In this document: piece after piece, positions 17,145 to 54,933 of the stretch
Position numbering within the stretch: the stretch's first letter is position 1
How the letters are laid out: every line of letters begins with the position of its first letter
Source: Phoronis australis
Lineage: Eukaryota; Animalia; Phoronida
Length of the DNA: 64,000 bases
Assembly (NCBI GenBank): GCA_002633005.1
Contig: NMRA01000070.1
Span: 277,575 to 341,574 of the forward strand
Direction: 5' to 3'
Position numbers and translations under genes: made by a program
The notes under the pieces: generated by a model
Told to the model about the DNA's origin: nothing
Database searches by the model: none
The model's input: only the letters and a program-made list of their open reading frames with translations

Positions 17145-19000
17145 GGTGAACTTGGAACCCTGCTTAATCTCAAGATCGTGTATATATGCGCGAACTTGGA
17201 GTTGAACATTCATTTGGTCAATCAGGTGAATTTTTTGTTCAGTGTAAGGACTTTTTGTAATTATTGGCCTCATGATCACCCGTTTTCTCCTCAAACGTGA
17301 CTTGTGTCAAGGAATCGGGGGAATTGTGTGAATGGTTGAATCAATTGATAAGATCCGCTAGTAGTTGCAAAAGGATACGTTATTTTATTACTGTTATTTG
17401 ATTTGATGCAATGCAAATTTTTATCAACGTGAACGTGATTATTTGAGTAAACTTGTCGAGTTTCCTCATGTATTCCAAGTTCACACATACACGAAGTTCA
17501 CGCACAGCAGTTTACAGTCAACCCTTATCAAGGAACCCGGGGGTTCTTCCATACAAGAGGTACGACGTGCTGGTCATAAGGGTAGCTATTTCGGATCCAA
17601 TCTCCCTGCGAAAGGATATGTTTCTGAAAAAACCTCTGCGGAAGAATGCATTTTCTTACAAAATTACCAACAAAACCGTTTGAAAACTTCGACAGACACT
17701 CTCAGAGTTTTTCAATTCGTATCAGTCATCTACTTTCAAAACTTTATTGTTCCAAATAAGAGGCGTAGTTACGACACATATGCACGTGAGTCGTAGACAA
17801 AATGAAAAATGTTAATTTTCTAATAGTAATAATAATAATAATAATAATAATATATTTATAACTTTTTTCTGAATAAAGTAACACTTTGGCAATTTACTCA
17901 AAACTGTAGTGAAATATTGAGTGTACATTACGGTGGCCGGTACATGACGTTTTTCTACTTTTGTGGTATTTTCCACCGTGGTGAAAGATGACTTCTCAAC
18001 CTGGTGAGAAGCACATTCCACAGTAACAGTAGAAAGTATAAATACATGCACGACTGTAACTTCGGAATTGCAATTTGAGCGATATCTTTAATTTCAGTCG
18101 GCTCGTGGAGAGTGGACTCCTGCGTTTCCTGGCGAACAGGTCTAACTCATTGCCTGTTTTATCTATGGCCTGAGTGTCGTCTTCACCCCCATCTCCAAAT
18201 CTGTCTTCATGATACTCGTCAAACTCCCTCTACGTCTTTTTAATGTCTTCCACTGATGGCATCAGCTGGCGGAAAACCAAAGGATCATTAACTTTTCTTT
18301 AAAATACATATTTACTCAATTATTTCCCAAAATAAGTGCTTGTTTAGTTAGATCTTGTGTTACAAAATTATTATACACGGTCAAAAACATCTAAAAGTGC
18401 AAAAATCCATTGTAGGAACAAACGGTTCGGCAGGACAGCCAATGACACGGGTTTTCGTACCTTTCTACAATATGCAATGTCATCTACGTTGAAATAACTA
18501 AAGTACACTCAAACCCACGAGTTTCGCAGTGAGAATTAACGGAACTAAACATGAAGTGAACAATCGGAAAACACGTTTTCACCTACGCAGCCTCAACCTG
18601 ATAAAGATCGCTGGGTCACTTGTGCTGAGTCTATTCATTCGAGTTGCAGTAAACCCAAAACGAATCCTCTCTGGATAACATTAGTGATACACAAGTAAGT
18701 TAGTTATACACCTGTATGCGTCTGGCACTCTTTTCTTTCGTTCTATAATGAAAGGCGGTATTTCTAATCCGACCAAATGTGTTTTAGGCCCCTGGCTGGG
18801 GCACAGGAAGAAAAACAAACAGTTTATCAATGGAGGTTGGGCTCCATGGGCTTCAGTTGTGTCCGATTCTCGTTTCAGGGTTTATACTTGAGATACCTGG
18901 GATTTTCCTAAGTGATTCAATGGTGCAAAGATTACTGAGATGCAATTTCGGTCCGACATTTCGGTGTTCACTACGCCTGCATTACACTCAGACTGACAGA
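17145..19000 (+). repeat. Left arm of a large inverted repeat (same TIR family terminus)
   Basis: About 17149-18040 is the reverse complement of about 32225-33026, and about 18845-19000 is the reverse complement of about 32020-32195. Confidence 0.9.
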
Positions 19001-19988
19001 TTAAGGATGCCCACTGGGGTCGCGGTGCAAGACAGTAATGCCGTTTTTGGGATTTATTGTTGTTGGAGTTCCACCCCACCACATCCCACCCACAAGACCG
19101 CCACTCAACCAGTACAGCGCTACCCTGGCCGGCCGTCTAGGCGCCGGCGCGGCGTCTCGGCATACCTCCGTCGACAGATGGGAAACGGTCAGGGCACAAA
19201 TTCTTGATCCTCTTCCAAATGACAAGTAGTTAACAATTTGCCGGTAGGCAAAATACACACAGTAGCGTGCAGAGGTTTGGGGCGATTTTTTTAATTGCAT
19301 GCCACTTCTCTAATCAAATGAATTCAGGACCCTTATACTAAGAAAAATAAAAAAGACGAAACATAACATAGACACTTTATTCAATTACAAATCAGTAATT
19401 GGATGACCCCCGATGTGGATCGATGCCTGTGCCCGTCGCCCCGTCGCCCCGTCGCCCTACCACACCCCCTTCTGAACGGTACTGATTTTACAACAATGAT
19501 TATTTTGAACTCTTGATAGTCGGTGGGCCAAATCTCATAGCGTTCACCCTTGTGAGTACTTTGGGGGGCAACCTAGTTTTTTCTATGTGGCTAGATAATA
19601 TAACTAAAAATCGAATTCCAAAAAGTTCCCACGTCTACACTTGCACATTTTTTTTAAAAAAAGGTGTTTTTGTTGCACAAAATATGATGCATATTCCTGC
19701 GACTTGATGGCGCTTTTCTAGTGAATTGACCAATCAGAGAGCCAGATTGTATTGTTGTGCTTAGTTACTTCAATATGAGACATTAAGTCACGGGTTTCTG
19801 GGCTCATAGACCTTCAGACTAGTTTCGAACTAAATAGCTTTACTTCTTGTCGGCCTTACAGGGCCTTTTAAAAAACATTTTAATAGTCGCATAATTTGCC
19901 TTCAGACATGTTAAGCTTCGGAGTATCGAGCTCCACCCTATTTATACTAATGCACTATGACTGGCAAGCTACGTTTAATTACATTCTT

Positions 19989-20653
19989 AATTACTCTGCG
20001 CGTGCAAGCGCAAAGATTTGCTGTTCTTCGTATCTTCTTATTACTCTGCGCGTGCAAGCGCAGAGTACTGTTGTTCCTGGGTTTTCTTCAATTTTATTAC
20101 TCTGCGCGTGCAAGCGCAGATTTTTACTGTTCTACGTATTTTATCTTCTCATTCTTATTCTTCTTATTCTTCTTATTCTTCCTTCCTTTTCAGATTGTTA
20201 TTACTCTTACATCCATTCACTTACAACAGTCATACTCACTGTGGTTAATATGATAATGAAATTTCGTGAACAGTTTGATGCCATATAGGTGCACCCAGAA
20301 CTTACACGGAATTTCGATCTGATCAACTGAACTGAATTTCTGGGTCAAAGGTCAATCAGTGCAAAAATGATTTCTGAGCTAGACATTTCATCAACACATA
20401 TATCATTTTCATTTATAAATTAAATTCAGTCACAAACTTTGGAGTAATTAGGTGCAACTGCGAGGTCATTAAGTGCACTTTTCCATTGATATTCTAATTT
20501 TTCACTCTTGCTCTTTCATAGTTACCAGGGACATCACTCTCTTTCACACGAAGGATGCAACTTTTATGCAATGTAATACGCCTTAACTTCACTATGCGTG
20601 TGCATACACCCCGCGCAGAGTTGTAAGTGCGCATACTCAATTGCATTCTACTT
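19989..20653 (+). mobile_element. Helentron-associated (HINE/DINE-1-like) non-autonomous element
   Basis: The 5' hairpin motif ttactctgcgcgtgcaagcgcag occurs three times, followed by an (ATTCTT)n-type microsatellite. The 3' inverted subterminal copy cgcgcagagt is followed by a short terminal stem. It interrupts unit 1 at a T-rich site, where unit 3 reads cttaattttagtc uninterrupted. Confidence 0.65.
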
Positions 20654-23119
20654 TTAGTCTCCGGTTGTTAATTTTCGTCTTCCATCCTTGTTCCGATTTG
20701 GTTATCCGTGGACTGCGTGGTAGCGTTGTTGCGTGGGTATGGCGATCAAATAAACAAAAACGTCCATTAATAAAATTTACAAACAATCGAGATATCAACT
20801 AATGTTTTTAATTTGCCTCTCCCATATTAATTGAGAAATCCTTGTCTGCGCCACGGCAGAAGTCGATCATGGGAACCACTGTTCAGCTACTTGTGGCATC
20901 TGCAAAGGAATTCACCATTGAACCTTGAACCTTGAACCTTGAACGTAATTTGGATTCAGCCATGCTATTTTTCTTAATATGTTATGGCTTGTGTTAGTAT
21001 GTTAGTGAAATTGTTAGTCGTTATTAGAAATAGCATTAGCGTCAGTGCAAATGTACCAGTAAGACAAGTAACAAACGTTTAGTCCAAGCGAATAGTATTG
21101 GATTTGATAGATACAAAGATCCATCCATTTAAAGTACATGTGTGTCATCACCTCCCAAATACTGAAACATCAGTTCAACCTAAAGTACAACAAAAATACA
21201 GTAAACACTTAAATCCTGTTACAATAATCTGGACAAAACACAGTTGTAACAGGTGGAGAGCTCTAGCTGCAAGTGTCAGCGAGACCAAATTGCATTCAGT
21301 AATGAAAGTTATATAACTCTATCGTCCCCTATCAATCGGGTTGGACCGCATCTCATGGGCGTGCCCTCACGGAAGAGGCAACTTCCTGGCGTCATTTTAG
21401 ATTTCCGTCTCTGGTGTTATTTTGGGTTGGTGGTCCCGTGACATCTTTCGTTCATTGCCAATGGTTGAGAGGTCAAGGTCCTGCTTGTTCAGGTTCTGTA
21501 TGACCCTCGAAAATAGCTGTTCAGATTTAGATCAAATGCCACATACTATGATTTGAACACCTATCACAACACGAAAATGAATTGATCATAGTTTACCACA
21601 TCAACAGTGTTCCTGTGATCACTTCCCGAATATTTTTTTTCATCAAATATATTTCGATTATTTTACATTGATACCATTGTTTTACTATCAATGTTTTGGG
21701 GTTTTTTTGCTAAATTTTATGGGATTTTTGAGTTTGAAGGCTTATATCTCAGAAATCGATGATCCGATTTAAGTAAAATGTTCGAATACTGCGATTTAAA
21801 CACGGTTCACAAAACGAAAAGGAAATGGTCACACTTTAGAATATTAACATTGTTTCTAACACCACTTATGGAATAATTTCGGTCTTTACCATGGCGAGGT
21901 CTCTTGGCGTCTCCGTGTCAGGAAAGAAGGCCCTTCTACACGACGTAGCCACTGAAGTTGAACAGGCATCTTGTTGGATTTGGATGAAATACCAACAGCA
22001 ACACCACCAACAACCGTCAGACAGAGCCTGATCAACTATGTTGTCCTGCCTACTAGAGATGGTCTTGGTTTAGGGACGAAACCTTAAAGGACAGTAGGAG
22101 ACCAACTGAATATGGCGGTTAAGCGCAGTTCCATCAAGTGTTTAAAGTAAGTTCATTAAATCAAATTCGATCTTGTTATTGATACAGTTGTTTTACTATC
22201 AATGTGAATTTGTCTTTTATGTGATGAAACCAGGTGTAAAAGGGTATATATGAACAAAGACAGATGTCTGAATGGCTGGCGAGTAGATTTTTCACTTTGC
22301 TTTTCCAAATTAAACAAGTGTTCGGTAAAGCTTTGATGGCTCATAGAGCTCGCATGCAGTCGAAACTTGTAGCTTCTAGGATGTTTATAACCTGAACAGC
22401 ACCATACCTTTTGGCCCTGTGTTATTCGTGTAAGTGGTACTTTGGAACACTGTCATTGTTTGCAACGTCAAAGTCCAGCGGTTCGACGAATGGTCAAATC
22501 GCTAAAAAATCTACAATGAGGTAAAAAGGAAATCAACCCATTGCGAGTAGTAAAAACATACGACCACAATTTTAAATTAGAAGTGAGAAAGAGTTGGCCG
22601 AAGTTATGAATTCCCGGTATTAATGGTTCCGAAGTTTTGCAAGCCCACAAATACATACTGTAAATCCAAAGAACCACACAAATCCTGAAGTCCATTAGTT
22701 CGAAAGCTAAAAGTTCGAAATTTTATGACACGAGGTTCTGAGCAGTGACTTCCAGCAAAACGTTCGGGGGTTTGTAAGCACGTGCCTGTTTGAAACCAGT
22801 TCTTCAAAGAGCCAGTGTCTCTGGGAAGGATCCAAACAAAAATTTTCAATGAGCACTGAGCTGTCGCTTTAATTTACATTTCCATATTTCGGTTCACCGC
22901 AACTAAAATTTTGCTGCTCTGCTGTCGTTGAGGTTTTGTGGTCTCATAGATGTTCGAACCAGTTTTGAACTAACTAGCTTTCTTTTCGTCCAGATAAGGC
23001 CTTCTTAAAAACATTTTCAATAGACGTATTTTAGGTGTCAGGACTTCAGAACCTTCAGAGTGCCGAGATGTACCTTATTTATACTAAAGCTGTGTGAAAT
23101 GCAAGAAACGTTAGCTTAC

Positions 23120-23830
23120 CTTCATAATTTTCGTCTTAAACCCTTCTTCTTCCGTTTTTGGTATCCGTGGGTCGCAGCATATCGTTCGGGTATGGGTATA
23201 GTGTGTAAATAGACAAAAACTTGTGTAATAAAACTTTCAAATAATCGACAAGTCACCTGTTTTCAATTTGCCGCTCGGATGCTAATTGAAAAATCCTTGA
23301 CCCTGTGCCGGCAGAAATCGACTACGGGAACTACTGCTCAAGTCCATCTGGTTGTGTGCAAAGGAATTAAAAAAAACACCATTCAGCATGCATTTTGAGA
23401 CCTTGAACTTCATTTTCGTTTTTTCATGCTTTCTTTCGTGGTATGTCAGTGCTTATATTAGTATGTTAGTGCAAGTGTTAGCCAGGATCAGAAATAGCGT
23501 AAGCGTCAATGCGAAAGAACCACCAAGAAAACTAACAAAAGTAACAAACGTTTAGTCCAGGAGAATAGTAATACATTTGATAGACGGGCAGATAAATTCA
23601 CTGGAATAAATGTGCGTCATCACAACCCAAAAATTTCTACATGAGAAGAAGCCAGAGTGCAATTAAAATGCAGCCAACATTAACATCTATTACACTGACT
23701 TGGACCCAAGTGGAGAACTGTAGCTGCATGTGTCAGCCAGACCAAAATGTTATCAATAACGAAAGTTAAACACTTCTGTTGTCCTTCGTGTATCTGCTAA
23801 GGCAGCACCTCATCGCCCGCGCCCTCACGG
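23120..23830 (-). pseudogene. Decayed exon of an unidentified membrane-protein-like gene (best-readable copy, unit 2)
   Basis: The minus strand gives LTFVIDNILVWL...GCILIALWLLLM*...FVTFVSFLGGSFALTLTLFLILANTCTNILI*ALTYHERKHEK...EEEGFKTKIMK followed by a GTAAGC donor. It has several stops and frameshifts. Confidence 0.45.
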
Positions 23831-23919
23831 AATAGGCAACTTGCTGGGGGAGAGGTCAGGGTCCTGTTTGTTTAGCTTCTGTATGATCTTTAATGTCTAC
23901 ATTTCTCTAACTTTGAAGG

Positions 23920-25093
23920 TTTATACCCCCAGACAATGCAATGCGCCCGCGAATGCATCGCAAATGGTGTGCTTTTAGAGTTCTTTATTTGTATCATAAA
24001 ATTGCCACTAGATGGCGCAAAAACGTACAATCCATCTAAAAACGGGAACATGCCATTTTTCATAAAAATCTGTCAAGGAACTTCAGAGAAACAAAGGAAA
24101 ACAGAACAAAATGAAATTGGCACTTGTAGGCACAGGGTCCGTTCCATCCGCCTGAAAGTCGTTGTCTGTTATCTTCATATAAATTCACTTACTAAATTTA
24201 ATAAAGATCCTGCAGTGGGTTTTGGAGAGACAGCTAGGGTGCAAAACAAAACAAAACTACCAAGATTTGAAAACAGCAAAAATAGCCACAAGGTGGTGCA
24301 AAATACCTCGATTCCATCCAAAAACAGGAAGATAGCGTCATCACAACAATAGATGCCTATATTCACAATTTTATGAAAATCTATTGAAGATCTTTGAAGA
24401 TACAGAGTTAAAGGTAAAAAAACTAAAATTGCCACTAGGGGGGCACAGCAATAGTCAGATCTGTCCGAAAGTCGTCGCCATCCGTAGTCAACATCACATA
24501 AATACACTTGCTAAATTAAGTAAAGATCCTGCGAATGGTTTAGAAGATACAGCCATAAGCGCAAACAGAACTGCCACTAGGAGGCGCCACAGTAGTCGAA
24601 ATCGCCGGAAAATCATCTTCAACCGTCCTCTTTATAGTAAGCACATACATGTCAATTTTCACAATCATCCTTTGAGCGGTTTGGTTGATAGGGGGGTGGG
24701 CGCAAAAAAACAGACTCGAAAACAGTAAAAATGGTCACTAGGTGGCGCAAACTAAGTTGAATCCATCAGAAAACGGGAGAATAGCGTCATCCCATTAATA
24801 GGTGCCTACATACCAAATTTCACGAAAATCCGATGAGGACTTTTGAAGACTCAAAGGTAAGCGTAAAAAACTAAAATTGCCACTAGGGGTCACACCGGTA
24901 GTCGGATCCGTCCGTACGTTCGCTCATGCCGTCCCATTCATGAATGGAACATATGTGTTAAATTTCATAAACGTATGTCAAAGGGTTTTGGAAATAGACG
25001 CCGGACGGACGCCGGACGGACGCCGCACGGACGGACGGACGGACGGAGATGACGGCATAATGCGTCCGCATATAAATATGTGGGCGCATAAAA
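23920..25093. mobile_element. HINE/DINE-1-like element with internal ~150-bp tandem repeats, (GGAC)n microsatellite and terminal hairpin
   Basis: There are seven monomers, most carrying a ccactag.tggcgc-like motif. (GGAC)n runs over about 25002-25046. The hairpin atgcgtccgcatat-aa-atatgtgggcgcat is followed by an A run. The left boundary is approximate. Confidence 0.7.
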
Positions 25094-27234
25094 ATGTCAA
25101 ATATACTTTGATATAAAAACCGTTCACACAGCGAAAATGAAATGATCATATTTTAGACCACTAACACTATTTCTGAGATCACTTCAGGAATACTTTCATA
25201 ACATTAAATTCGATCTTGTTATTGATACCGTTGTCTTACTATCAACGTGCCTTTGTTTTTTGTTTTTTTTTGTTTTTTTTGCTAAGTTTTACGGTTTTTG
25301 AGAGACTGTGCCCTGAAACCAGGTATGAAACAGTGTACATCAATAAATACAAATGCCTGAATGATTGGCAAGTAGATTATTTACTTCGCTTTTCCAAATC
25401 AAACACTCAAGTATTTGGTCATATTGTGATGGCACACTGGAGTACACACATGTTGTCGAAACCGGTAACTTCCAGCATGTTGACAAATGAACTGGTGTCA
25501 GTAGTGTTAGTAGTTTTGATTTACAGCCACTAAAAGTATAGTGCTTCGCTGTCGATGACTTTGAATCACTTGTTGGTGTCATGGACCTTTGGATTAGTTT
25601 CGAAATAAATGGCTTTTCTGTCTGTTTGAATTCTGAACCTTCGGACTTACAGGGCCTTTATAAAAACAATTTTCATTTGTCGCATAATTTGCCTTCAGGC
25701 TTCTGAACCTTCACAGTATCGAGCTCGATCCTATTTACACTAATGTGTTATAATTCGCAAGCTACGCCAATTACCTGCTTAATTTTAGTCTTCGGTAGTT
25801 AATTTCGGTCTTCCATAGTTCTTCTTCCGTTTTCGTTATCCGTGGGTAGCATCGTATCGTTGTTGCGTGAATATGGCGCGTAAATAAACAAAAACCGGCA
25901 TTAATAACAATCGAGGAATCAACTAATGTTTTCAATTTGCAACTCGAATAGTATTACTAACTGAAAAATCCTTGTCAATGTCACGGCAGCCACTTCTCAG
26001 CTCCATCTGATTGCGGCATCTGCAGAGGAATTCAAATAATACCATTCAGCATGCGATCTTGAACGTCATTTGGATTTTTTCATGCTGTCTTTCTTGTAAT
26101 GTCAGGACTTGCGTTAGTATGTTAGTGCAATTATTAGTCAGGGTTAGAATGAGCGTTAGCGTCAACGCGAATATACCAGCAAGACAAGTAACATACGTCT
26201 AGTGCAAGTGAAAAGTAATAGATTGGATGGATGGAGAGATCTATCTATTAAGTACATGTGCGTCATCACCACCCAAGCACCAATACTTGAGTACAACCAA
26301 GAGCACGACTAAAATACAGTCAATTCTCAATACTTGAAATTAATTGCAAAGATCTATATACCACACAGAGTTGTCAAAGGTAGGGAATTGTAACTGCAAG
26401 AAACAGCCAGACAAAACTGATATCAATAACGAAAGTTAAATACCTCCATCGTCCTTCCTGTATTGGGTAAGACAGCATCTCATGGCGTGCGCCTTCACGT
26501 AAGAGGCAACTCCCTTGATTTTTTTTACCTTTCCGACTCTGGTGGCTCAGCGACATCTTTGGTTCGCTGCTAGTGTTGGCGAGGTCAGGGTCGTCCTTGT
26601 TTAGGTCACGTTTGACTATAGAAGAAAAAATGACTACATTTCTCTAACTTTAAAGTAGGTGTTCAAGTTGATGTATACTTTCAAATACTATGATTAAACA
26701 CTGTTCACAAAACTAAAATGAAATGATTATATTTTAGAACATTTACAGTGTTTCACTCCTGAAACATTTTTTATCAAACGAATATCCACTTTGTTATTAA
26801 TACCGTTGTCTTACTATCAATGTATCTTTTTAGCAGAAATTTACGCTTCTTGGGAAACTGGGCCTTGAAACGAGGTGTGAAACAGTGTACATGAGAAAAG
26901 ACAGATGCCTGAATGACTGGCGAGTAGTTTTACTTCGCTTTTCCAAATCAAACAAGTGTTTGTTCATATTTTGATGGCTCAAACGAGTACACGCATGTAG
27001 ACCGAACCGGTGACTTCCAGCTGAACGGATAGCTCTTGGCTCTGGTGTTATTCGTGGTCCTGTAGCACCATTTGTAAACTGCTCACGACGTCAGGTCCCG
27101 CATGTTATTGTAGACTGGTCAGTCCTGTCGTTTGACGAATGGCCAAGTCGGAACAAACAACTACAAAAAGGTAAAAGAAAACCAATTCTTTAGAAGCGAT
27201 AAAACAAATAGTACCTCATTGCCCTCAATTAACA

Positions 27235-27392
27235 ACAACAAGTGAGATACAGTGAGACACGAAGGTATGAAATCACGGTCGTCATGGTTCCGGACGGACG
27301 CCGGACGGACGCCGGACGGGCGCCGGACGGACGCCGGACGGACGGAGATGACGGCATAATGCGTCCACATATAAATATGTGGGCGCATAATA
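27235..27392. mobile_element. Short copy of the same HINE-like element
   Basis: (GGAC/GCCGGAC)n followed by agatgacggcataatgcgtccacatataaatatgtgggcgcataa is nearly identical to 25000-25093. Confidence 0.75.
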
Positions 27393-27669
27393 ACACACTA
27401 GTTAATCAAAATCCAGTAGTTTGACAAAAGCGAAGTCGCTTACTAAGATCTTCTAATTAGCCTATACAAATACCAGTTTTCTGCTCAGTGGTTTGAAACC
27501 AGTTATAAAACCATGCACAGGAATACTTTTAATAGATCATACAAGTACAACCATGTAGTCGAAAGCTAAAACTTCCGGGATGCTTTCAGATGAGACACAC
27601 CATACCTTTTGACTCTGGTTTGTTTGGTTCACAGTTATTCGGATATCATCGTGATTCGTTCGGAAGTTA

Positions 27670-28470
27670 GTGCCGCCCGTAATTACGATCGCAATTACAG
27701 CAGAGACTGCGCTCGTGTTTTACGACCGTAATCGTTAAATCCAATGAGATATTGGTTTGTAGTTTACGTGAGCTCAGCAGAAATTCTACGCTCGAAATTT
27801 TACGCTCGTATTTTTCCCTCGTAATTTTAGCAAGTAGCCGTTTGATTCAAGTACCAGTCCACGAGATCACCAGCATTTGATATTGTTTTGTGGTGCAAAT
27901 GGTTTGTCATCCAAGTGTCTTGAATAAGTAATGAATAATTTACCATCAACATTTGGAAACTCTACTGCATTACCCCAAAAACCGATTTGAACCAATGTTT
28001 TTGCAATTTCATATTATCTGCTCGCACCGTTAAGAGTAAGAAAACGAAACTTGGTCTAAATACTGAAAAAGCATGGTAATTTTAACAAATGAAATAAGAC
28101 AACCTGCTAGATATACATTTTGGCACCTCAGTAAAACGGACCACTTTCAAATGCATGCGATAGCTAGGGCAGCAAGTAAAAAAAATTCAGTCAGTCATCG
28201 ATATTTTTCAATCTTTTGCTCTGATAAACTTTGCACCTGAGATTTTATCTTCTGAACTCTTCATAATAGGTGCAAAAATACAAGCGTAAAATAACGTACA
28301 TAAAATTACAATTACTAGTGTAAAATGACGAACGTAAATTTACGAGCATACACATGTACAACTGCTTCAGAGCTCACGTGACCTACAGTCCAATTTATCA
28401 TTGGATATCAGAATTACAGTAGTAAAACGCTAGCTTTATAATAGTCTCGGTCGTAATTATGAGCGTCCAT
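27670..28470. mobile_element. MITE-like element with degenerate long TIRs
   Basis: Left cgtaattacga...cacgtgagctc-type sequence pairs with right gagctcacgtgacctac...tcgtaattatga. A second partial copy lies at 8800-9330. Confidence 0.55.
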
Positions 28471-29369
28471 CAAAATCCAGTGGTTTGACAATTGCAAAAT
28501 TACTCAAATAAAATAAAGCAATTAAGATTACATGAAATTAACCCCCGAGAAAGAACAGAACATATTTGAGCTGAACTGAAAACTTACAGTGTATGAATTT
28601 TACAACGTAAAGTGTAAATTGAATTGGTTAGGAAAATGAAGCAACGCCGCTGCAAAGAGGAAAACTATTAGAAAACTGGATTTCTTACAGTGCTGTTGTT
28701 GGTGAATGTATAGGATTGTATTCTGTCGGTCAACAAACAAAAGTAAGTGTTTTTATTCATAATAACTTAAAAGAACTAGTGAATACCATTCAATCATTCC
28801 CCATGTTGTCCTTATAATTGCCACCGAACCTGACTTGCACCATTTTTTCGTTTTAGACGACCTAAAAACTTCAAAAGCAGAAAATTTACCGACTGATTTA
28901 AATAGACTAAAAAGTTCAGAATACATGCCATAGTTAGTAAAATTGATCATTTAATCCCAAACAGCTCTTAAAAAGTTCTTATTACTTCAATAGCGTTGTG
29001 CGTGATTGCGATAATGCAAGCACAGTTTTTGTGAGATCTTTGCAAAAGCATACCCTCCTTTCTGCGAATTTGACCACACTACAAAAAGATGCTCTAAACC
29101 GTGCGGCCAAAACATATCGATTTTTAAATCAATATCTTTTGGCCGATGTAATTATGATAATATCAATCAGCTCAGTGCACATTGTCGAACTTTGTTTGGA
29201 TCTTTTTGGGAGGCACTGGCTCTCCGAGGAAGTAGTTTCAAACAGGTACGTGCATATAAATTCCCGAACATTTTGCTTCAAATTACTGATCAGAACCTCG
29301 TGTCACGAAAGTTCAATTTTTAATTTTCGGAGTTATGTAGTATCTTTTTAGTGCCGGACTTGTACTAGC

Positions 29370-29604
29370 GACGTACCTTGGGGGCCAACATAGCCCACGT
29401 CATGCAGTGCTGTTCCCCAACACCACATCACGATATTAACGGTTGAGTGATTTACGGCGAATCATTTTCAATACCAAACTCGTTCTTAGAATTTGGTAAT
29501 GTTCAACCTACTTCATATTCATATCGTCGCTATATACTGTGTTCCAACCTAATATCATCAACCAATCACAGAAATGAGGAAATAGTGTGCAAGTTCCACT
29601 TTAA
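29370..29604. mobile_element. Interspersed repeat ending in TTAA; second copy in a Nischarin intron
   Basis: accttgggggc..acatagc...caacctacttcatattca...gcaagttccactttaa is shared with about 47930-48170. Confidence 0.7.
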
Positions 29605-31169
29605 ATCACTAGTCTCTGGTGTCATAGACCCTCAGACTAGTTTCGAAATAACTAGTTTTACATTCTGTCTGATTTGTGAATCTTCGGCCTTCACAGGGCC
29701 TTTTCAAAATATTTTCATTTGTCGGATTATGGGCCTTTGGACTTGTGAAAGATAGAAGTATCTACGTATTGCACTGTGACACGCAAGCAACATTATATTA
29801 CCTTGTTAATTTTAATTGTGGTTGTTGATTTTCGTCTTCCGTCTTCCTTCATCCATTTCGGTTATCCATGGCTCGCAACTTACCGTTGGGGGTATGGGTA
29901 GGGTGTAAATATACAAAGTGCATTAATAAAATTTATAAACAATCGACAAATCAAAGATTGTTTTCAATTTTCCACTCGGAGACTAATTGAAAACTCCTTT
30001 CTTCCCTAACTCGGCACTCATCGATCACGGGAACCACTGCTGGTTGTGGCTTCTGCAGAGGAATTCAATTGACACCATTCAACATGCATTTTGTGACTTT
30101 GAACGTTGTGTTCATTCATGCTGTCTCTTTTATTAGATGTTAGGACACCTGTTAGTACGTTAGTGCAATTGTTAGTAGGGGTTAGAAAGAGCAACAAGAA
30201 AAGTAACAAATGTCATGGGCAAGCGAATGATAATAAAATTGATAGATGGATAGATCTATCCATTGAAATGCATGTGCGTCGTCGACCCATGTGTACAACC
30301 TGCAGTACAATTCAATACAGACAACATTTAAAATATATTACAACGAACTGGACACCACATTGTCACGGGTAGTGAATTGTCATCCAGACTAAAATTTGAT
30401 GAATAACGGAACTTACACACTTGCATCATCCGGCATGTATCGGATAAGACATCATCTCATTCTGCGCGCTCTCTCGGAAATTGCCACAATCTGACACAGC
30501 AGGCCGTTCAACTCAAAGGAAAATTTTCTATTGGTCATTCTATTACTCCTCGGAAGGGGTTGTAGCTCTTTCCCGTAAAATATGAGCACCTACAGACCGT
30601 TGTATATCAGTAATTTTTTAAAGTATATCTGAAATAATTATCAAGTTACAACTGCTGGAGAAGACATTTACAAATTCAACCAAGCCATCGAAGTGCAACA
30701 CCCAGATAACCACGTCGTTACACCATCCAAATCAATAAACCCGTCTTTTAGAAATTCTGAATACTGAAAGTGTGTTCTCAATGGAAGTCATATGTGATCC
30801 TGCAGTGAAGACTCTGGCGAATAGATCTTTGTGGAAACTGCATTTCAATGGGATACCTTTAAAAACCGCATGTGGGCTACGACGAAGTCATGACACAGGT
30901 CATTCATCGGTATTGTTTCGTGGACCGGAGATTTGCCTTAAAGGCGGTGGTACCTCAAGCAATTGACTGGCAGGCAGGTGTTTTTGTAGCAAATCCGTCA
31001 ACTTCAAGAGCCATGTCTTTCGATTTAGAGAACTCGTATTGCTTTCCACTACCAGGTTCTACCCAGTGGCGTATTTAGGGGGGAGGGGCATCACGTGACC
31101 TATAGTTTGTCTAATAATACTGACCGGGACTTTCTGCTAACAGAAGGTTAGCAGAAAGTTTATAAAGTA

Positions 31170-32030: not shown

Positions 32031-33026
32031 TCTCTGAGTGTAATGCAGGCCTAGTCGGGACACCGAAATGTCGGATCGAAATTGCATCTCAGTAATCTTT
32101 GCACCGTTGGCTCACTTAGGCAAATCCCAGATGTCTCACTCCAACAAGTAAAAACCCTGACAAAGTGAGAATCGGTCACAACTGAAGACCATGGCATGTG
32201 TCACATCTCTGTTAGGCCTACTCAGTAGTGAGTGACGGTGGAATGTACTTCTCACCTGGTTGAGAAGTCATTTTTCACCACGGTGGAAAGTACCACGAAA
32301 GTAAAAAAACGTCATGTACCGGCCACCGTGGTGTGCACTCAGTGTTTTACTACGACGCGCGTGCATATATGTCGCCGGTGACTACGCCTCTCATTTCAGT
32401 TGGACGAACAACAAAGTTTTAAAGTAGACTGACTGATGAATTGAAAAACTCTGGGAGTGTCTGTCGAAGTCTTCAAACGATTTTGTTGGGAATTTTGTAA
32501 GAAAATGCATTCTTCCGCAGAGGTTTTTTCAGAAACGTATCCTTTCGTAGGGAGATTGGTTCTGAAAAGCCGCAACGGCAGTGAGTGAGCAGCACAGTCG
32601 TAGCCTACCTCTTGTATGGAAGAACCCCCGGGTTCCTTGATAAGAGCTGACTGTAAACTGCTGTGCGTGAACTTCGTGTATGTGTGAACTCGGAATACAC
32701 GAGGAAACTTGACAAGTTTCGACTCAAATAATCACGTTAACGTTGATAAAAATTTGCACTGCATCAAATCAAATTACCTAACGTATCCTTTTGCAACTAC
32801 TAGCGGATGTTATCAATTGATTTAACCATTCACATAATTCCCCCGATTTCTTGACACAAGTCACGTTTAAGGAGAAAATGGGTAATCATGAGGCCAATAA
32901 TTACAAAGAGTCCTTACACTGAACAAAAATTTCACCTGTGATTGACCAAATGAATGTTCAATTCCTAGTTCGCGCATACATACACGATCTTGAGATTAAG
33001 CAGGATTCCAAGTTGAAGTACAACAC
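32020..33026 (-). repeat. Right arm of the large inverted repeat, ending in an intact TIR next to the Nischarin promoter
   Basis: It ends with gatcttgagattaagcaggattccaagttgaagtacaacac. It lacks the ~800 bp equivalent to 18040-18845. Confidence 0.9.
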
Positions 33027-33159: not shown

Positions 33160-33249
33160 ATGGCTTGCTTCAGAAAAGATGCAGACGATTTCAACTTTTC
33201 TAATTTTGTCACTGTTATTGGAGCAGAAGTGACAGACGAGAAGTATACG
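33160..33249 (+). CDS. NISCH: Nischarin coding exon 1
   Basis: MACFRKDADDFNFSNFVTVIGAEVTDEKYT then GT; aligns with the Nischarin N-terminus (V.G.E...YT). Confidence 0.8.
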
Positions 33250-36200
33250 GTTGGTATATGTCGTGAGATTGAGGCACCTGTGTCGTGACATCTTGAGTTG
33301 ACTAGGCAATGACCATCGCATCTGTTGGCCCGTCTGGTTCGGGCCAACAGAGGCGATGGTCATTGCCTAGGAGTTATGCTGAGAAGTAGAGCGAACTAGA
33401 AGAGCACAATCCCTCTTGTCAGCCTCACTGTTGTCGTAATAGCCGAGATTGCCCGACCTCGGGAATCGAACCAGCGACCCCGATTTAACCAATTTTAACC
33501 GGCGTGCTGACCATTCAGCTAATAAAGTAATAGGCAATTGCCCGTTAGCGAGTGGCTAACAGAGGCTCATATGTGATTCACCAGAAGCACTTTCACAATA
33601 TCCCCCCTTTCCTATCAACAAGCGCGCCATCAGCCAGGTGTACCTTACAGTTACATGCCTGTACATGCACCTTACATTATGCCTGTGCCCTACCAACAAG
33701 CGTGCTGTCTCAGGCCCCAGGGTTTACGAAGTGCTTCATCGGTATATCATCAGTTTGCCGACTACGCCAATTGTCGTAATAGCCGAGATTGCCCGACCTC
33801 GGGAATCGAACCAGCGACCCCGATTTAACCGGCGAGCGTGCTGACCATTCAGCTAATAGGCAATTGCCCGTTAGCGAGTGGCTAACAGAGGCTCATATGT
33901 GATGTAATGTTCCACATTTGGCACCACATGATGTTGGCACATGCATGTGTTCAGAGCACTGAACAGTTCAGTTAAGAGGATACCAAGCATGGTTTTGGCC
34001 TATTAACAGATTCTGAAACTGACTTTCTGAAACAAGATAAGACTCTGTAAGCCTTGGCAATGCTCAAAAGTTTGGAGGTAAATTTGAAAACTGTTCAAAA
34101 GTCTGCTTAAGCAGGCAAGCGTGACCTGCTAAGAACCACAATATGTAGTCTGATATAGGGAGTATGAGTCTTACTGATTCCAGATTTTATGTTTCTAGAT
34201 TGATGCCAATGATGCATTTAGCAGATGACAGAACGAGGATTGGTTGAAATCATCAAGATAGGGTTCAGTATCAAGGGTAGTTAGAGTATTTCCCACCTAG
34301 GTTTTAGTCAGAGGAGTCTGATAACAGTTAACCATTTACTACAAATAGGATTTGAGGTCTGACTATTGGATCGCAATTTATCACTTTTTATCTTTGGTAG
34401 TTATTTGGCATTAAATATTACTTAGGCTGTGTAACTAGCTATGAGCGTGTCTAAAATTTTGATAACTGTTTGCATGTTATGATTACATCAGGCACAGTTT
34501 CATGGTTGCTGCTCGTAGGGATAACATTTTCTTGAGAAAAATTAAAAGATCAGATCATAGTGTTAGTAGTTTGAAGTTAGGACTGAATTGATAGCAAGAT
34601 GATGAACTATACCTTGTCACTAGGTGGCGGTAGCGTAGTTGTTGGACAGCTTTTTGCATTCTTGCATGGATTTAATTCAGTGCGATTTTTCCAGACTGTT
34701 TGTTACGGAATTCCTTTCTGCCTTCATGCTGTCAGTTGCCATTGTTCTGTGGTGAGATAGTTTAAGCAATTCATGCTAGAATGTCTGCCTCAAAATGTCC
34801 GTGAACAAAAGAAATATGTTTCTTCCCTGTCAACTCGTCTAGTGATGCACACCAGAGTTAGAAACTAGGTCAAGCAACAGGCGCTTTTGTGCTCTCACAA
34901 CTGTGAAGAGTTGTATGTAACATGTTTCGTATTGGTCAAATGCCAGAGGTTGGAGTTTGTGGATCACTTTTAATGCCACTGTGAATGGTGTTCTGGTGTC
35001 ACAGACCACTTTCTTTACAAGCATGTTTGCTCTTCCAAGTCAAAGCCAATGTATCCTTATCCTTTGAAATTGGTTATTACTCAAAATTGAACTGGCATTC
35101 TCTATTCTACTTTTGTATGTCAACTCAAGTTTAAATTTCTACTACTGTATGCTTGAGTACATAGGGCTTAGGCGATTAACTCTATTAATCTTATTTTGCT
35201 GGTTACGACCTTGCTCAGTAAGGCTAAAATTTTGAGTCTGAACTCTAAAATTTGAGTTTTTACTTGGAATCTTAAGTTTTCATTTGAGGTTTTACTTCAA
35301 CTCTCTAGGGGCCATCTAGTGGTACGAACTTAAACTAGAAACTCAAATACAAAACCATAGCGTACTCGAGTACTTTAAAATGGACACGTACGGTATCTTG
35401 AATTTGCATGCATGTTAGTAAACTGACCGATGATGGAATTTTTGGGTAAAATCAGGCAAGATCGGCGAAATTTATGCCAGATGTGGTTGTCTGTGTCCTA
35501 TGTTCGTTCACCGCCGGAAGGACTTGAGTTACGGAACGATGTTACGCCTTCACTTAGGCATTTACGGGGGAAATCAGAGGAAAAATAGTGCTACAACCCT
35601 TCAGCAGGGGATCGTTGCACCTTTACGCTACATTTCAGCATAACGCTGTGTGGTAATGACGGCATTGGCTTCATAGTTCATAACTGATTTTGATTTTGTA
35701 CTTTTGTTTGACTCGACAGAATTCATGTACGACAATCAAACCACTATCTAAACCATCTGATTGCCGCATACAACTTAGTAAATGATTAGAAGTTGTGTAT
35801 GAGAGTTGAAGTGTGAATGTGCAGACAGTGCTTTAGAGGTATGTCTTTATGCTGTCTGATAAAAGTAACTTCAGTGTGTTTAAAATTTGTCAATTCGAAC
35901 TTGTGTTAAAGTATTTGAAAACATTGCCCGTTTTCATCAGACTTTTGTGAAATTTTCAGATATACACAATTCGTGTGACACTTGGAAAATACTTCTGGAC
36001 AGTTCAGCACCGCTACAGAGAATTTCTGGAGCTACACGAAAAAGTAAGTTTTACCGACTGAGTAAGATTTTAATCAGTTTTCAAACTGCACGTTATTGAT
36101 TCTTCACAAACTTGTGTGACAGTTTTGAGTAAGTTTGGTGTGTGACTCAAAATAATTTCGGTTACGAGTTTTCAACCTATAGGCATCTTTAGATTTACTG

Positions 36201-51200: not shown

Positions 51201-54200
51201 GACTGCTGAGTATCAGGCAAATAGCTAAGTATTTGTATAAAAAAGTTATGGTCAAATTTTATTGCCATGTTCTCGTTCTTTTGCATGATTTCGTATTCTG
51301 TAGAACACAAAGACAAGACCAAGTGTTTGTTTTTACTTGACAATTGACCTATCGTCAGGACCTTGAGTGACAGCTTAACTGACCGTCCATTTAGAACTCA
51401 TCAGTCTTGACACACCTTCGTTTCCAAGCTGCCATTTTACCCGACAAACAACCCGTTGCCGAGTAAAACTTATTGTTTGTTAGTCGACATTACGCAAGGG
51501 GGCGGAGCTTGTGATAGGTCAACTACAATGCTGCTTAACATTTAGATCAATCACACAAGAAAAATGTGATTTGATGTATTACTAAAATAATCCCTTAGTC
51601 AATCAACATGCAATGATGAAAGATTTTACCTCGCACTGTATTTCTTTAATCTGCTACAGGGTGGCCCAAAGCCAGCCTCCACTTGTGCTGCCAGTTCTGG
51701 TCCATGGTCTCCTCCCAGTCTCACTTCCCAAGATGGAGGATGCTGGGTTCATGTCCTACATACAGACACTAGCTCAACAGACTAACCTTGACCAGGATAA
51801 TTCATTTACGGAAGTGATTTGGTGCCATCTTATTTATCAACCAAATCCTACGATAGCATTCCCGTGTTGCGTGGCTCTGACAAAATCCTCGCTCCATCTG
51901 TATGAACTTGTGGACAATGACGCAGTAATGATGCATAGAGAGATCCCACGCCTCAAGTTCCATCATCAAATAAGTCTTGACACAATCACACATGTTATTA
52001 CGGGTATGAATGATGTGTACATGAAGGTTTTCTCAAGGGCAAGTAATGTAGTTCTCATTTGCCTCGACTCCAACCCACCGTTTATGGATCTGATGATGCG
52101 GTTCAAAACGAACCGAGGATGTGACCACGTTGAGTACTCATGCGAAAGCGATGAGATTCAAAGAGTTCTTGAGAGCCATACTGAAGCAGGCGATGTTTTG
52201 TTATATGCTTTGTGTGTGTGTTCACTCGCAGAGAACAGTGATTCGCAGAGTTGTCTCAGTAAAACAAAAGAGGTCTATGCTGTAGTGGTTACGAACACGA
52301 AGTTGTTTCTGGCTAGACACAACTATTTCCGCCGTGTCGGAGATGTGTCTTCCATCTTGGATGTTGTAAAGACATTTTCATTGGAAGGAGATGTTGAGAA
52401 TGTGGTAACATTTTCTGCACCAGAGGGTGCTTATCAATCTGTTAAAGTATTTTTCGTAGACACTAAAGGTGGTTCTAAGGTAGACCTTATGTTATACATG
52501 GCAAACAATTTGCTCAGTTTTGGTTTTGCAGAGTTTTTTAAAATCTCCGATGATCAAAACATGGGCAAAAGCAATGTGCTGGAATGCGAATCCCATGCTG
52601 AAATTACGAGTGGAGCGATGCCTATTGACAGACTAAATGATCAACAAGACTTGGATCAGCAGTCGAGCAGTCAAGTTAAGCATGTTGAAATTTGCACAGA
52701 AATTAATACCGTAACCTCCACAAGTGCAACTGAAAGTGTCGTAGTTCCAGATAACCAGTTGGTGGCTGAAAAACATTCGCCAGAGGAAGTCACGCCACGT
52801 GTAAGTCCTCAAATCAGTCCACTGCCTGCAGCTGACAGTGGTGATGGTCTGAGTTTGAGCGATGCTGTCGTGTCTACTTGTGGTGCTGACACCTATACCA
52901 TGCCTGACAATTCTGGTGTTGATAGTGCCACCAAAGTGTCTGATGCACGTATTAGCAAGGATGACTGGGCTGTTATTGACACCATCACAGCTGCAGGAAG
53001 TGATATTCGTCACGTTGTGAGCACTGATATGCCCTCTAGCGTTGTTGAAGGCCAATTGTCCTCCAGCGTAAATTTCAACTCTGCATCCATTCCACCCATT
53101 GTTGCAGAAAATCTGTTTGAAACGGGTATTCCTGGTGAACCTGTTGATGTCGAACACGTTAAAAAGAGGCGGTCGCGGTATAAGCGAAACAAGAAAGGTC
53201 TCATGTCTCCTGATAGCATCAGTACGGCTAGTTCGGGTTCACTGAACAGCTCCCCGACAAGCACCCCTGAACGGACCATTGTCAGCAGGTCATTACAGCA
53301 CATACAAGAGGCGCGTAAAACTGAGACGTCCGCTCAACTCCGTGCTGCCTTCAGCAAGACTGAGCAAGAGAGTAGACCCTCATCCGGCAGTGCTTTAGAC
53401 TCTGATGTAGATGTTGTAGACACCAGACAGTCCAGTGACGGTCCTGTGAGAGAAGACATGAGCTCCCTTTATGCTCTCTTGAAAGAGGATAGCTCACAAA
53501 CTGTCAAACACTTCCATGCTATGCCAAAAGATAATCCGTCTCCAGAGAACATTCCTGTTGTCACAACCTCCACTATGTCTCCAGGTGCACCCTTAAGGTT
53601 AAATATAGCGTCCCCACCAGTCACTTTGAGTCTTGGCTACCCCAGCCGCGAGCTCTTGGTTCACCTGGGAAAATGCAATCAAAGCATGGATCTTATTAAC
53701 CCTTTGACAAAACAGATGAATGGGCTGGCCTCAATGACTGGAGAGGAGGTGATGAATTTCTTCCACAGCGCCATAGTGCAGATTGGCTCCGAGGGTGAAG
53801 AGCTATGCCATCTGGTGTGGGCCTGTGTGATCCCATTTATCCAGCCAAAACAGGAGATCATCACGTGTGTCATGCTGAGCACACGAGCAGTGTACTTTGT
53901 GTCCGACAGTTTAGTTTTGACTGGGCGTGTGTCTACAACATCGTTCCGCAGCCACACTCGCAACAAGTCGGATTCTCTTGTGAGTGAGAGGTCAAGCACA
54001 TTCACTGGGAGTCAGAGCTACTCATCCACGCACCTGGGTACTCGGGCCGGAGTGGTGAAACCGTATCACATCTTGCAGCTGAGTGATCTGAAGCACGTCA
54101 ACGTGGGAATGTTCGATCAGAGCTTCCGTTTGGCTGGGGCCACTCCGGAGTCTGTGTATAGCTGTGTCACGCGAAACCATGAGCCCACGGAAGCGTTTGT

Positions 54201-54933
54201 AAAACAGCTGTCAAAAGTGTTGATGTTATATTCTGCCACTCCATCTCCGGATCTGCAAAGCAGCGGCGAGGATTTCTACAAATCTTCCCGAACAAAACGC
54301 TCATTGTCGGCCGTGTCAAAGGGCGAATTCGAACACCCAAGCCGTGTGAAGTTTCATTATGCCAACGAGGACTTGATCATCGATCTGACCTACGTTATCC
54401 ACGAGCGCACAGTGAGCGCCAAGACCAATGTCGAGGATACGAACATTTTGTTGTATCTGCTCCTGTTCCAAATGGAGGTGGGCTCTTCAAGTTCTCCCGG
54501 CGAGTCGTCACGTCAGGCGAGGGCGAAGCCTCGCACACTGGTCGTCACAGACTATCATCTGACTCTACTCGACGAGGATCTGGTCAACTATCCTTTCCCA
54601 GACTTTGTAGTGGCGCCGCCCAGCGTCCAACACTATAAGGTGTTGGAGATTCGTAATGTAGAGTACTTGAAACGTGTCGTACTCAGTGATTTCAAGTCAC
54701 ACGATTTGACGCTCGTCTTTTCCGACTTGACCGATGAAATCGTTGTTGACACGTCTGTGGAATACTTTGGCGCTGAGACAACATCGGCATCGTCGAGTCT
54801 TCCAATAAGGGAGATCTCGTGGGTTTTGGCAATTCAAAGCCTTAGAGACAAGGACAGGTTGCTGAAGCTGGTTTCAAGGTTGTGGAGTGAATTTCACGGA
54901 GACAAACAACTGTCAGTTCAAGTGAACGAGTAA
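33160..54933 (+). CDS. NISCH: Nischarin (PX domain + LRR + C-terminal region), 14 coding exons, 1647 aa
   Basis: All 14 exons have GT-AG boundaries and splice in frame (4944 nt). The sequence matches Nischarin motifs [74 protein letters not shown] and DYRIKVLQLFG. Confidence 0.95.
33302..33370. repeat. Near-perfect hairpin (31-bp arms, 1 mismatch, 7-nt loop)
   Basis: ctaggcaatgaccatcgcatctgttggcccg-tctggtt-cgggccaacagaggcgatggtcattgcctag. Confidence 0.9.
33432..33903 (-). mobile_element. TRIM (miniature LTR retrotransposon) with a tRNA-derived Pol III promoter in its LTRs (Helenus/TRIMp3-like)
   Basis: Direct repeats lie at 33432-33597 (TG...CA) and 33772-33903 (about 20 bp short at its outer end). 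On the minus strand, the PBS TGGCGTAGTCGGCA (33756-33769) lies 2 nt after the LTR end and is complementary to the tRNA-Ser 3' end. The PPT GGAAAGGGGGGATAT (33598-33612) abuts the other LTR. Both LTRs contain A box TAGCTGAATGG and B box GGTTCGATTCC. Confidence 0.88.
35960..36043 (+). CDS. NISCH: Nischarin exon 2 (PX domain)
   Basis: ttttcAG|[28 protein letters not shown]|GTaagt. Confidence 0.92.
36597..36776 (+). CDS. NISCH: Nischarin exon 3 (PX domain)
   Basis: ccacAG|[38 protein letters not shown]...HFLDFNKY|GTaag. Confidence 0.93.
37837..37981 (+). CDS. NISCH: Nischarin exon 4
   Basis: ttcc[23 protein letters not shown]...LKLAEPTC|GTgag. Confidence 0.93.
39428..39591 (+). CDS. NISCH: Nischarin exon 5
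   Basis: tttgcAG|[22 protein letters not shown]...FDLSHFKGLQVLE|GTtggt. Confidence 0.92.
40306..40401 (+). CDS. NISCH: Nischarin exon 6
   Basis: ttttcAG|LHNCSAAKILGLDTIKRNLKKICAHRSVKAVK|GTagtt. Confidence 0.9.
44617..44748 (+). CDS. NISCH: Nischarin exon 7 (LRR start)
   Basis: attcAG|DLLIHED...WSKVSWLDLSDNDVGEMDESL|GTaagt. Confidence 0.92.
45320..45515 (+). CDS. NISCH: Nischarin exon 8 (LRR)
   Basis: ctttaAG|KLLPRVEYLDFHNN...[22 protein letters not shown]|GTatgt. Confidence 0.92.
46947..47134 (+). CDS. NISCH: Nischarin exon 9 (LRR and LRR cap)
   Basis: ttctAG|GIAKLYSLEYLDVGNN...DYRIKVLQLFGNRANE|GTagta. Confidence 0.93.
47471..47587 (+). CDS. NISCH: Nischarin exon 10
   Basis: ccacAG|VSLDNQKINEREMDTLAVLMAIQKAREIKERGKRTQSRM|GTgagc. 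Confidence 0.92.
47930..48170. mobile_element. Intronic copy of the 29370-29604 repeat
   Basis: Collinear similarity ending in gcaagttccactttaa. Confidence 0.7.
48882..48936 (+). CDS. NISCH: Nischarin exon 11 (55 nt, NAGNAG acceptor)
   Basis: tttgcAG|cag...QSVEVNIEERTESKDAAA|GTgatt; supplies the phase 0-to-1 change needed to reach exon 12. Confidence 0.7.
49225..49361 (+). CDS. NISCH: Nischarin exon 12
   Basis: ttgcAG|GTSDGETAATQSEVGTLQLKIESIREKAGEGWLQTLNALQNTPPVK|GTgcag. Confidence 0.8.
49486..49790. mobile_element. MITE with GGGCCC terminus (same family as 1-210), running into a gap
   Basis: gggcccggtctctaatctttgtactcgaaac, with repeated actcga motifs. Confidence 0.5.
49795..50008. other. 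Assembly gap (N run)
   Basis: Run of n next to a minisatellite. Confidence 0.99.
50009..50119. repeat. 35-bp perfect minisatellite (at least 3 copies, probably continuing into the gap)
   Basis: cagtttacacccacgaacaagcaaaatgcatggca starts at 50009, 50044 and 50079, with a partial copy at 50114. Confidence 0.92.
50577..50662 (+). CDS. NISCH: Nischarin exon 13
   Basis: tttcAG|VHDFDSPYVSPNLSPGPAPPTTIVLTHN|GTgcgt; the phase 2 end matches the acceptor of the last exon. Confidence 0.72.
51344..51522. mobile_element. Small MITE
   Basis: Terminal inverted repeat ttgacctatc / gataggtcaa. Confidence 0.5.
51660..54933 (+). CDS. NISCH: Nischarin terminal exon (3274 nt)
   Basis: ctgctacAG|51660 enters the 1106-aa ORF frame. 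It contains C-terminal motifs such as CVMLSTRAVYF, VNVGMFDQSFRL and EDLVNYPFPDF, then TAA. Confidence 0.92.

Follow-up and report, generated by a model that had tools for sequence, protein, structure and literature searches.

A Helenus-type TRIM in a Phoronis intron carries an antisense mirror of the tRNA-like 5′ half in its LTRs

Helenus elements, TRIMs whose LTRs contain tRNA-type promoter boxes, pose a puzzle: Pol III transcription would have to start in one LTR and stop in an identical one, and the first strand must still be transferred. The question arises at a locus in a 64,000-nt stretch of Phoronis australis DNA (contig NMRA01000070.1; this whole stretch is referred to as the window). 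An initial annotation had described there a miniature LTR retrotransposon with a Pol III promoter in each LTR, had likened it to Helenus and had considered it a possible new family or host. We find that the element is a 5′-clipped, multi-copy Helenus-type TRIM and that the U3 part of its LTRs contains an inverted copy of the tRNA-like 5′ half, an arrangement that recurs in most published LTRs of non-insect animal Helenus when these are scored by eye.

The element occupies positions 33432–33903 on the minus strand, has a length of 472 bp with 20 bp clipped, and has no coding capacity. Read along that strand, the remaining 132 bp of the 5′ LTR (33772–33903, outer 20 bp missing) are followed by a 2-nt spacer, a primer-binding site (PBS; 33756–33769) complementary to the 3′ end of tRNA-Ser, a polypurine tract (PPT; 33598–33612) and, directly abutting it, a complete 3′ LTR of 166 bp with TG...CA ends (33432–33597). 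The non-coding internal region between the LTRs measures 174 bp (33598–33771). All coordinates given earlier for these parts hold, as does the observation that the LTRs differ mainly by small indels: the 128 aligned letters are identical throughout, and the LTRs are distinguished by three indels of 8, 10 and 4 nt. This identity indicates that the insertion is young or was recently converted. No target-site duplication (TSD) is readable, as had been noted, because 20 bp are gone from the outer end of the 5′ LTR, and the first 4–6 letters of the 3′ flank are absent from the 127 nt beyond the clipped end. An exact-match contig (33874–34247) overlaps this end by 30 letters, one below the bridging threshold.

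Each LTR contains a tRNA-type box A and box B on the minus strand. In the 5′ LTR these are TAGCTGAATGG (33845–33855) and GGTTCGATTCC (33802–33812), the latter 43 nt past the box A start; in the 3′ LTR they lie at 33511–33521 and 33462–33472, with box B 49 nt past box A. Searched with patterns that we take to represent the consensus of both boxes, the 64-kb window yielded no A+B pair besides these two, and none occurred in any of 200 shuffled windows; this result upholds the boxes described initially. The PBS is identical to the opening 14 letters of the antisense template for human tRNA-Ser given in the accessible part of PMC3299991, and the proposed tRNA-Ser-type PBS is thereby supported over 14 nt of human sequence.

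Other copies were surveyed at 80% likeness in contigs of four DNA runs, X1–X4, from one sample that is possibly the source of the window; the window itself holds no second copy. One X4 contig (record 25; 2,492 nt, depth 5.3 vs 4.8 for single copy) matches 33432–33629 and then 33693–33897, in order and with 179 other letters between, and carries the arrangement LTR-PPT...PBS-LTR; X1 record 1 agrees. The match begins exactly at 33432 and is flanked by 1,902 non-matching letters, which places this copy at a different locus and fixes the outer boundary of the 3′ LTR. The X2 run adds variant contigs, 19 of them at the spacer between LTR and PBS, 34 at 33752, 11 in the PPT and 114 at 33843. The existence of other copies, on which the earlier reading depended, is borne out by a second locus with the same arrangement, TSDs excepted, and by dozens of variants. 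X2 depth is 31 over exon 1 of the host gene, ranges from 691 to 20,862 in bins of the core and climbs as high as 200,454 in the LTR, values that do not represent a copy number. In most other copies the end reads TACA and follows a C (variant at 33775); judged by a loose end at 33899, they begin with TGTAG, the start seen in many animal Helenus. A contig joint from 33773 to 33525, considered as a sign of a tandem array, was read as one LTR aligned on the other. Two scans of metagenome contigs with exact patterns gave 0 matches; a pattern of LTR end plus PBS matched seven times in viral contigs, with no tRNA, and these matches were taken as chance.

According to the accessible part of Kojima 2024 (PMC10886601), which is the basis of all statements on published Helenus made here, Helenus elements have two LTRs, a length of 311–1263 bp, no coding sequence, a box A of the form TRGCY/YGG, a box B with GGTTC, a PBS complementary to a tRNA 3′ end and a PPT; TSDs of animal Helenus measure 4 bp, and most Helenus sequences are not functional tRNAs. 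Our element has the two LTRs, the size, the lack of coding sequence, both boxes at motif level, the PBS, the PPT and interspersed copies, so that the likeness to Helenus extends to every feature examined, and we hold this identity to be very likely. Priming by tRNA-Ser is not new, because Ser-TGA and Ser-GCT are already among the primers given for Helenus of bivalves. The family is absent from the published Helenus set: exact-word searches of the supplement, in which line breaks can hide some occurrences, gave 0 matches for five of six motifs of the element and 0 for its PBS, while the sixth motif, a generic box B, matched 13 times. Reading through all 76 LTRs of non-insect animals likewise gave no matching family. 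The earlier assignment of the tRNA-like part to tRNA-Asn(GTT) fared differently. ARAGORN reported 0 tRNAs in the window, an Rfam search yielded no tRNA match at E ≤ 10, and the anticodon-like GTT loop is not the same in both LTRs and has other letters in most of the remaining copies (about 78% of X2 contig depth differs at 33825 and 33826), which leaves the label unsupported.

Membership in Cassandra or Ajax, two other TRIM groups, was rejected since Rfam gave no 5S rRNA match and a tRNA-type box B is present; the nemertean Ajax, in contrast, has a 5S internal promoter, a tRNA-Leu PBS and 5-bp TSDs (PMC10886601). A retrozyme or hammerhead core was also dismissed, as there was no Rfam ribozyme match and the CTGATGA of the core is altered at 33752 in 12,886 of 13,282 X2 depth. 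Three Helenus families from Lingula differ from the element in their PBS and in lacking the mirror described below.

The element sits antisense in intron 1 of a Nischarin gene (33250–35959, plus strand, GT..AG), 183 bp from its start, where some 180 bp had been stated. Coding exon 1 (33160–33249, plus strand) splices in frame to exon 2 at 35960 and matches an Owenia protein, and the assignment to Nischarin is given by the Pfam family PH_NISCH_C (E 2e-46). The last 1,107 codons form one open frame without introns (window 51610–54933). Identity to relatives is 47% at best; among named ones it amounts to 43% for Owenia, 42% for Lineus, 38% for Solemya and 30–33% for vertebrates, and a protein search using the first 500 residues returned no match. 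A quick tree of the last 480 residues, built from 44 rows of about 165 proteins with no named brachiopod or phoronid among them, places the protein in a group of support 86 with annelids, nemerteans and molluscs and outside the mollusc and nemertean subgroups of support 99; the tree does not resolve its position further. The host is a lophotrochozoan, and a Helenus-type element at this locus likely marks a new host lineage. Of the two kinds of novelty suggested initially, that of the family thus stands, whereas that of the host is only likely.

Several other repeats lie in the window. A near-perfect palindrome of 69 bp (33302–33370; 31-nt arms, 97%) is found 61 bp from the 3′ LTR, and its X2 depth of about 190,000–200,000, compared with 31 for single copy, marks it as an abundant repeat in its own right, which may be a MITE. 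The palindrome matches the LTR U3 at 12 of 13 letters, which was equalled in 32 of 2,000 shuffles, and one contig joins a piece of the LTR to the palindrome. Past the clipped 5′ end, at about 33970–34270, lies another high-depth repeat family, whose loose ends at 34218, 34256 and 34272 are sharp. An inverted repeat pair of 677 bp (32350–33014 and 17149–17796, 87% identical) has one copy that stops some 150 bp in front of the start codon of Nischarin. A further inverted pair (868–1400 and 1512–2047, 87% identical) contains broken frames that presumably resemble the endonuclease end of a Penelope-type element, and a Pfam search on these frames gave no match. At least four diverged copies (66–73%) of a repeat some 1 kb long, which contains short tandem units of the GACG type, lie in the region 19780–30480.

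A further feature of the element lies just upstream of box A. In the 5′ LTR, 31 nt of U3 (33864–33894, minus strand) form an imperfect mirror of the 30 nt that follow: 33894–33864 and 33863–33834 can form 23 pairs at −27.2 kcal/mol (z −3.73; 1/200 shuffles). The mirror has as its core a 24-nt near-palindrome (33852–33875, minus strand) that forms 11 of 12 symmetric pairs; among the 126,688 24-mers of the window, 67 attain this level. The centre of the near-palindrome precedes the first T of box A by 8 nt and probably falls close to the point, about tRNA position +1, at which Pol III would start a tRNA-type transcript. The GTTAGC/GCTAAC hairpin reported earlier is one part of the larger inverted copy; since the right half of the mirror is the tRNA-like 5′ half, the small U3 hairpin represents a mirrored D-arm. 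A reading of the region as a hairpin followed by a free U-tract was abandoned when the T-run turned out to be paired inside the mirror. In the Nischarin-intron copy the mirror folds equally well on both strands (−27.2 vs −28.7 kcal/mol), so that this copy alone gives no strand signal.

The U3 antisense copy is also present in the 3′ LTR (33538–33568, minus strand), where it is the predicted partner of the RNA 5′ end. When an RNA of 33863–33538 is modelled and folded without constraints, its ends pair with each other, the expected number of pairs being about 10 of 12 (z −2.66; 1/100 shuffles). In the model, this pairing is retained when the RNA ends as much as about 10 nt further on, and it drops to 0.4–1.3 pairs if the RNA extends 50–75 nt into the 3′ LTR (two of three starts). 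Sequence variants among the other copies bear on the stem: on the element strand, the variant at 33843 closes an A/C mismatch and those at 33834 and 33880/33554 convert C-G to U-G. Among the variants listed, three well-supported ones keep or add pairs and one seen in a single contig (33508) breaks a pair.

The same arrangement can be traced in the published LTRs. We counted as a mirror an inverted copy of at least 20 nt that ends in the box A start and has at least 80% pairs, G-U allowed; scoring was by eye, unblinded and done after the pattern had been noticed, and related families are not independent. On this basis, a mirror is present in 53 of 76 published LTRs of non-insect animal Helenus (Kojima 2024, PMC10886601), namely in 33/51 from bivalves, 3/3 from nemerteans, 2/2 from the coelacanth, 2/2 from sturgeon and paddlefish, 13/14 from ostariophysans, 0/3 from Lingula and 0/1 from a ctenophore. 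The 23 LTRs without a full mirror are nevertheless repeat families, and the mirror is therefore not needed for all Helenus. Both Ajax LTRs, Ajax-1_NGe and Ajax-1_LiLo, likewise show by eye a mirror with 11/12 and 12/12 pairs, followed, as in our element, by a tRNA-type box A. The longer 30-nt match was traced in four published LTRs, LTR-11_DR, Helenus-1_CGi, Helenus-1_LiLo and Ajax-1_NGe. No mirror of at least 20 nt that includes box A was seen in 26 LTRs from rust fungi, taken from one part of the supplement, where shorter hairpins occur in two or three.

By eye, the letters of the mirror vary among families while the pairing is kept and the centre stays 7–8 nt before box A. The central tetramers are self-complementary (AATT, TTAA, ATAT, GATC, GTAC, CATG, TGCA, CCGG, TCGA and ACGT among others), with an odd central base in a minority of published mirrors. 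Departures are mostly G-U, which is far commoner than A-C, and a mismatch at the sixth pair recurs in at least nine published families and in the Phoronis element. The element resembles animal Helenus in size, boxes, tRNA PBS, PPT and lack of coding sequence, and, as judged by eye, also in the inverted copy that precedes box A and in its register; mirror families of this kind include Helenus-1_LiLo, Helenus-1_CGi, Helenus-2_PiNo, Helenus-2_MyGa, LTR1_LCh and LTR-11_DR. It differs from mirror-bearing Helenus in having TATT where its relatives have TTT. The accessible text of Kojima 2024 (PMC10886601) makes no mention of a hairpin, palindrome or inverted repeat, and the accessible parts of PMC13570524 and PMC6934838 do not describe a mirror; the biv-TRIM hairpins of the latter are located in the inner domain and were set aside as a different thing. 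We found no earlier description in the literature searched, which left most subscription journals and the Repbase reports outside its scope, and the mirror is apparently a feature not reported before.

What could the mirror be for? Pol III likely transcribes the element from the tRNA-type boxes in the 5′ LTR, and tRNA-Ser likely primes reverse transcription; PPT priming and integration would then be provided in trans by a Gypsy helper, a step that we infer from Kojima's animal Helenus. An RNA starting at the mirror centre would have its first 30 nt at the 5′ end, and the antisense copy of these would occur only close to the 3′ end. The two RNA ends could then form a panhandle, which would keep the short 3′ repeat adjacent to the strong-stop cDNA and permit first-strand transfer. 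We consider this explanation as a whole, including Pol III, tRNA-Ser, Gypsy and the predicted end pairing, to be correct with a probability of roughly 70%. The specific role of the mirror as an end-to-end clamp for strand transfer, which draws on the modelled fold, is a more tentative proposal to which we assign somewhat less than an even chance. A local hairpin loop does not need a self-complementary centre, and this symmetry points to pairing between distant copies. Related pairings are described in the accessible parts of work on other elements. Cassandra of plants (PMC7215508) is also a Pol III TRIM with short terminal RNA repeats and predicted LTR-LTR pairing, but it is 5S-derived with validated Pol III transcription, and its whole-LTR pairing is linked to tandem arrays, with no mirror centred on the start. 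In Ty1 (PMC3592414), a comparable 5′-3′ RNA pairing between CYC5 and CYC3 is needed for reverse transcription; Ty1, however, is autonomous and transcribed by Pol II, and CYC5 adjoins the PBS and not the RNA 5′ end.

Transcription of the full length by Pol III is awkward in one respect, since the Nischarin-intron copy has no run of at least four T on the element strand, while several published LTRs have T5–T6 after box B. The mirror might act as a terminator in the 3′ LTR only: because the long hairpin forms locally only once U3 has been transcribed, Pol III would pass the 5′ LTR and be halted by a weak T-run of the 3′ LTR. In human cells, T4 terminates only with a hairpin 0–10 nt upstream (bioRxiv 2020.09.11.294140, accessible part). 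Most other copies apparently have T4 at 33828–33825, 6 nt after the stem end, if both variants share molecules, and T3–T4 just before box A is the single conserved T-run of the published mirror families. This run is, however, itself paired in the mirror, and here it reads TATT, with no T4; moreover, a local hairpin would require no self-complementary central tetramer, and the small U3 hairpin would form first during co-transcriptional growth. We regard termination as an unlikely role, although neither it nor the dimer site and neutral relic considered next need be exclusive. Dimerisation or packaging, with two RNAs paired through the palindromes of their 3′ LTRs, appears improbable to us: it requires pairing through the centre, as the mirror allows, the self-duplex of the 24-mer is far more stable than its hairpin (−32.2 vs −10.5 kcal/mol), and palindromic interstrand contacts are known from Ty1 (PMC3592414, accessible part), but it leaves unexplained why the centre lies at the tRNA start position in every scored family.

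Function may also be absent altogether. The mirror could be a neutral relic of an old inverted duplication, its symmetry maintained by quasi-palindrome correction of DNA, with boxes that may be vestigial and transcription by Pol II or by read-through. The equal folding of both strands, the location of the copy in a host intron, the absence of the mirror from 23 of the 76 LTRs and the unvalidated status of Pol III transcription in Helenus (PMC10886601) are compatible with such a history. DNA correction, on the other hand, predicts Watson-Crick symmetry and neither the excess of G-U nor the recurrent sixth-pair mismatch seen by eye, and the boxes are intact and canonically spaced; we judge a relic to be improbable as well. 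Least credible, and in our view very remote, is an ordinary tRNA-SINE duplicated locally, with a PBS and a PPT that arose by chance. A pair of nearly identical tRNA-like units, 330 bp apart and without a TSD, might be read in this way. Against it stand the 14-nt match to a tRNA 3′ end just 2 nt from the LTR end, the PPT abutting the other LTR, the TG...CA ends and the recurrence of the arrangement at a second locus (X4 record 25, X1 record 1). A tRNA-SINE was expected to have a single 5′ head with an A-rich or simple-repeat tail and no PBS or PPT, and the element has both of the latter and no tail.

At its most modest, the Phoronis element enlarges a class described in 2024 by one family and probably also by one host lineage. 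A wider reading would unite most animal Helenus, the Phoronis element and Ajax in one Pol III class, in which U3 is antisense to the first 30 nt of the RNA, has been preserved as such in fish, coelacanth, bivalves, ribbon worms and the present host through compensatory change, and clamps the RNA ends together. We hold this to be possible and rather doubtful. If it is true, replication works with almost no terminal repeat, and lineages thought to have arisen separately are joined. In both Ajax elements, the mirror and a tRNA-type box A lie upstream of the 5S part, which suggests that Ajax derives from a mirror-bearing Helenus; under the wider reading it would be a promoter-swapped Helenus. Multiple origins have been argued for Helenus (Kojima 2024, PMC10886601), and the mirror is relevant to the choice between a single origin and several origins of animal Helenus and Ajax. 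It makes exact predictions, namely a start at its centre, 5′-3′ pairing and rescue by compensatory change, and these can be tested outside Phoronis, in oyster or with zebrafish LTR-11_DR, for which 5,575 LTRs are given in the accessible part of PMC10886601.
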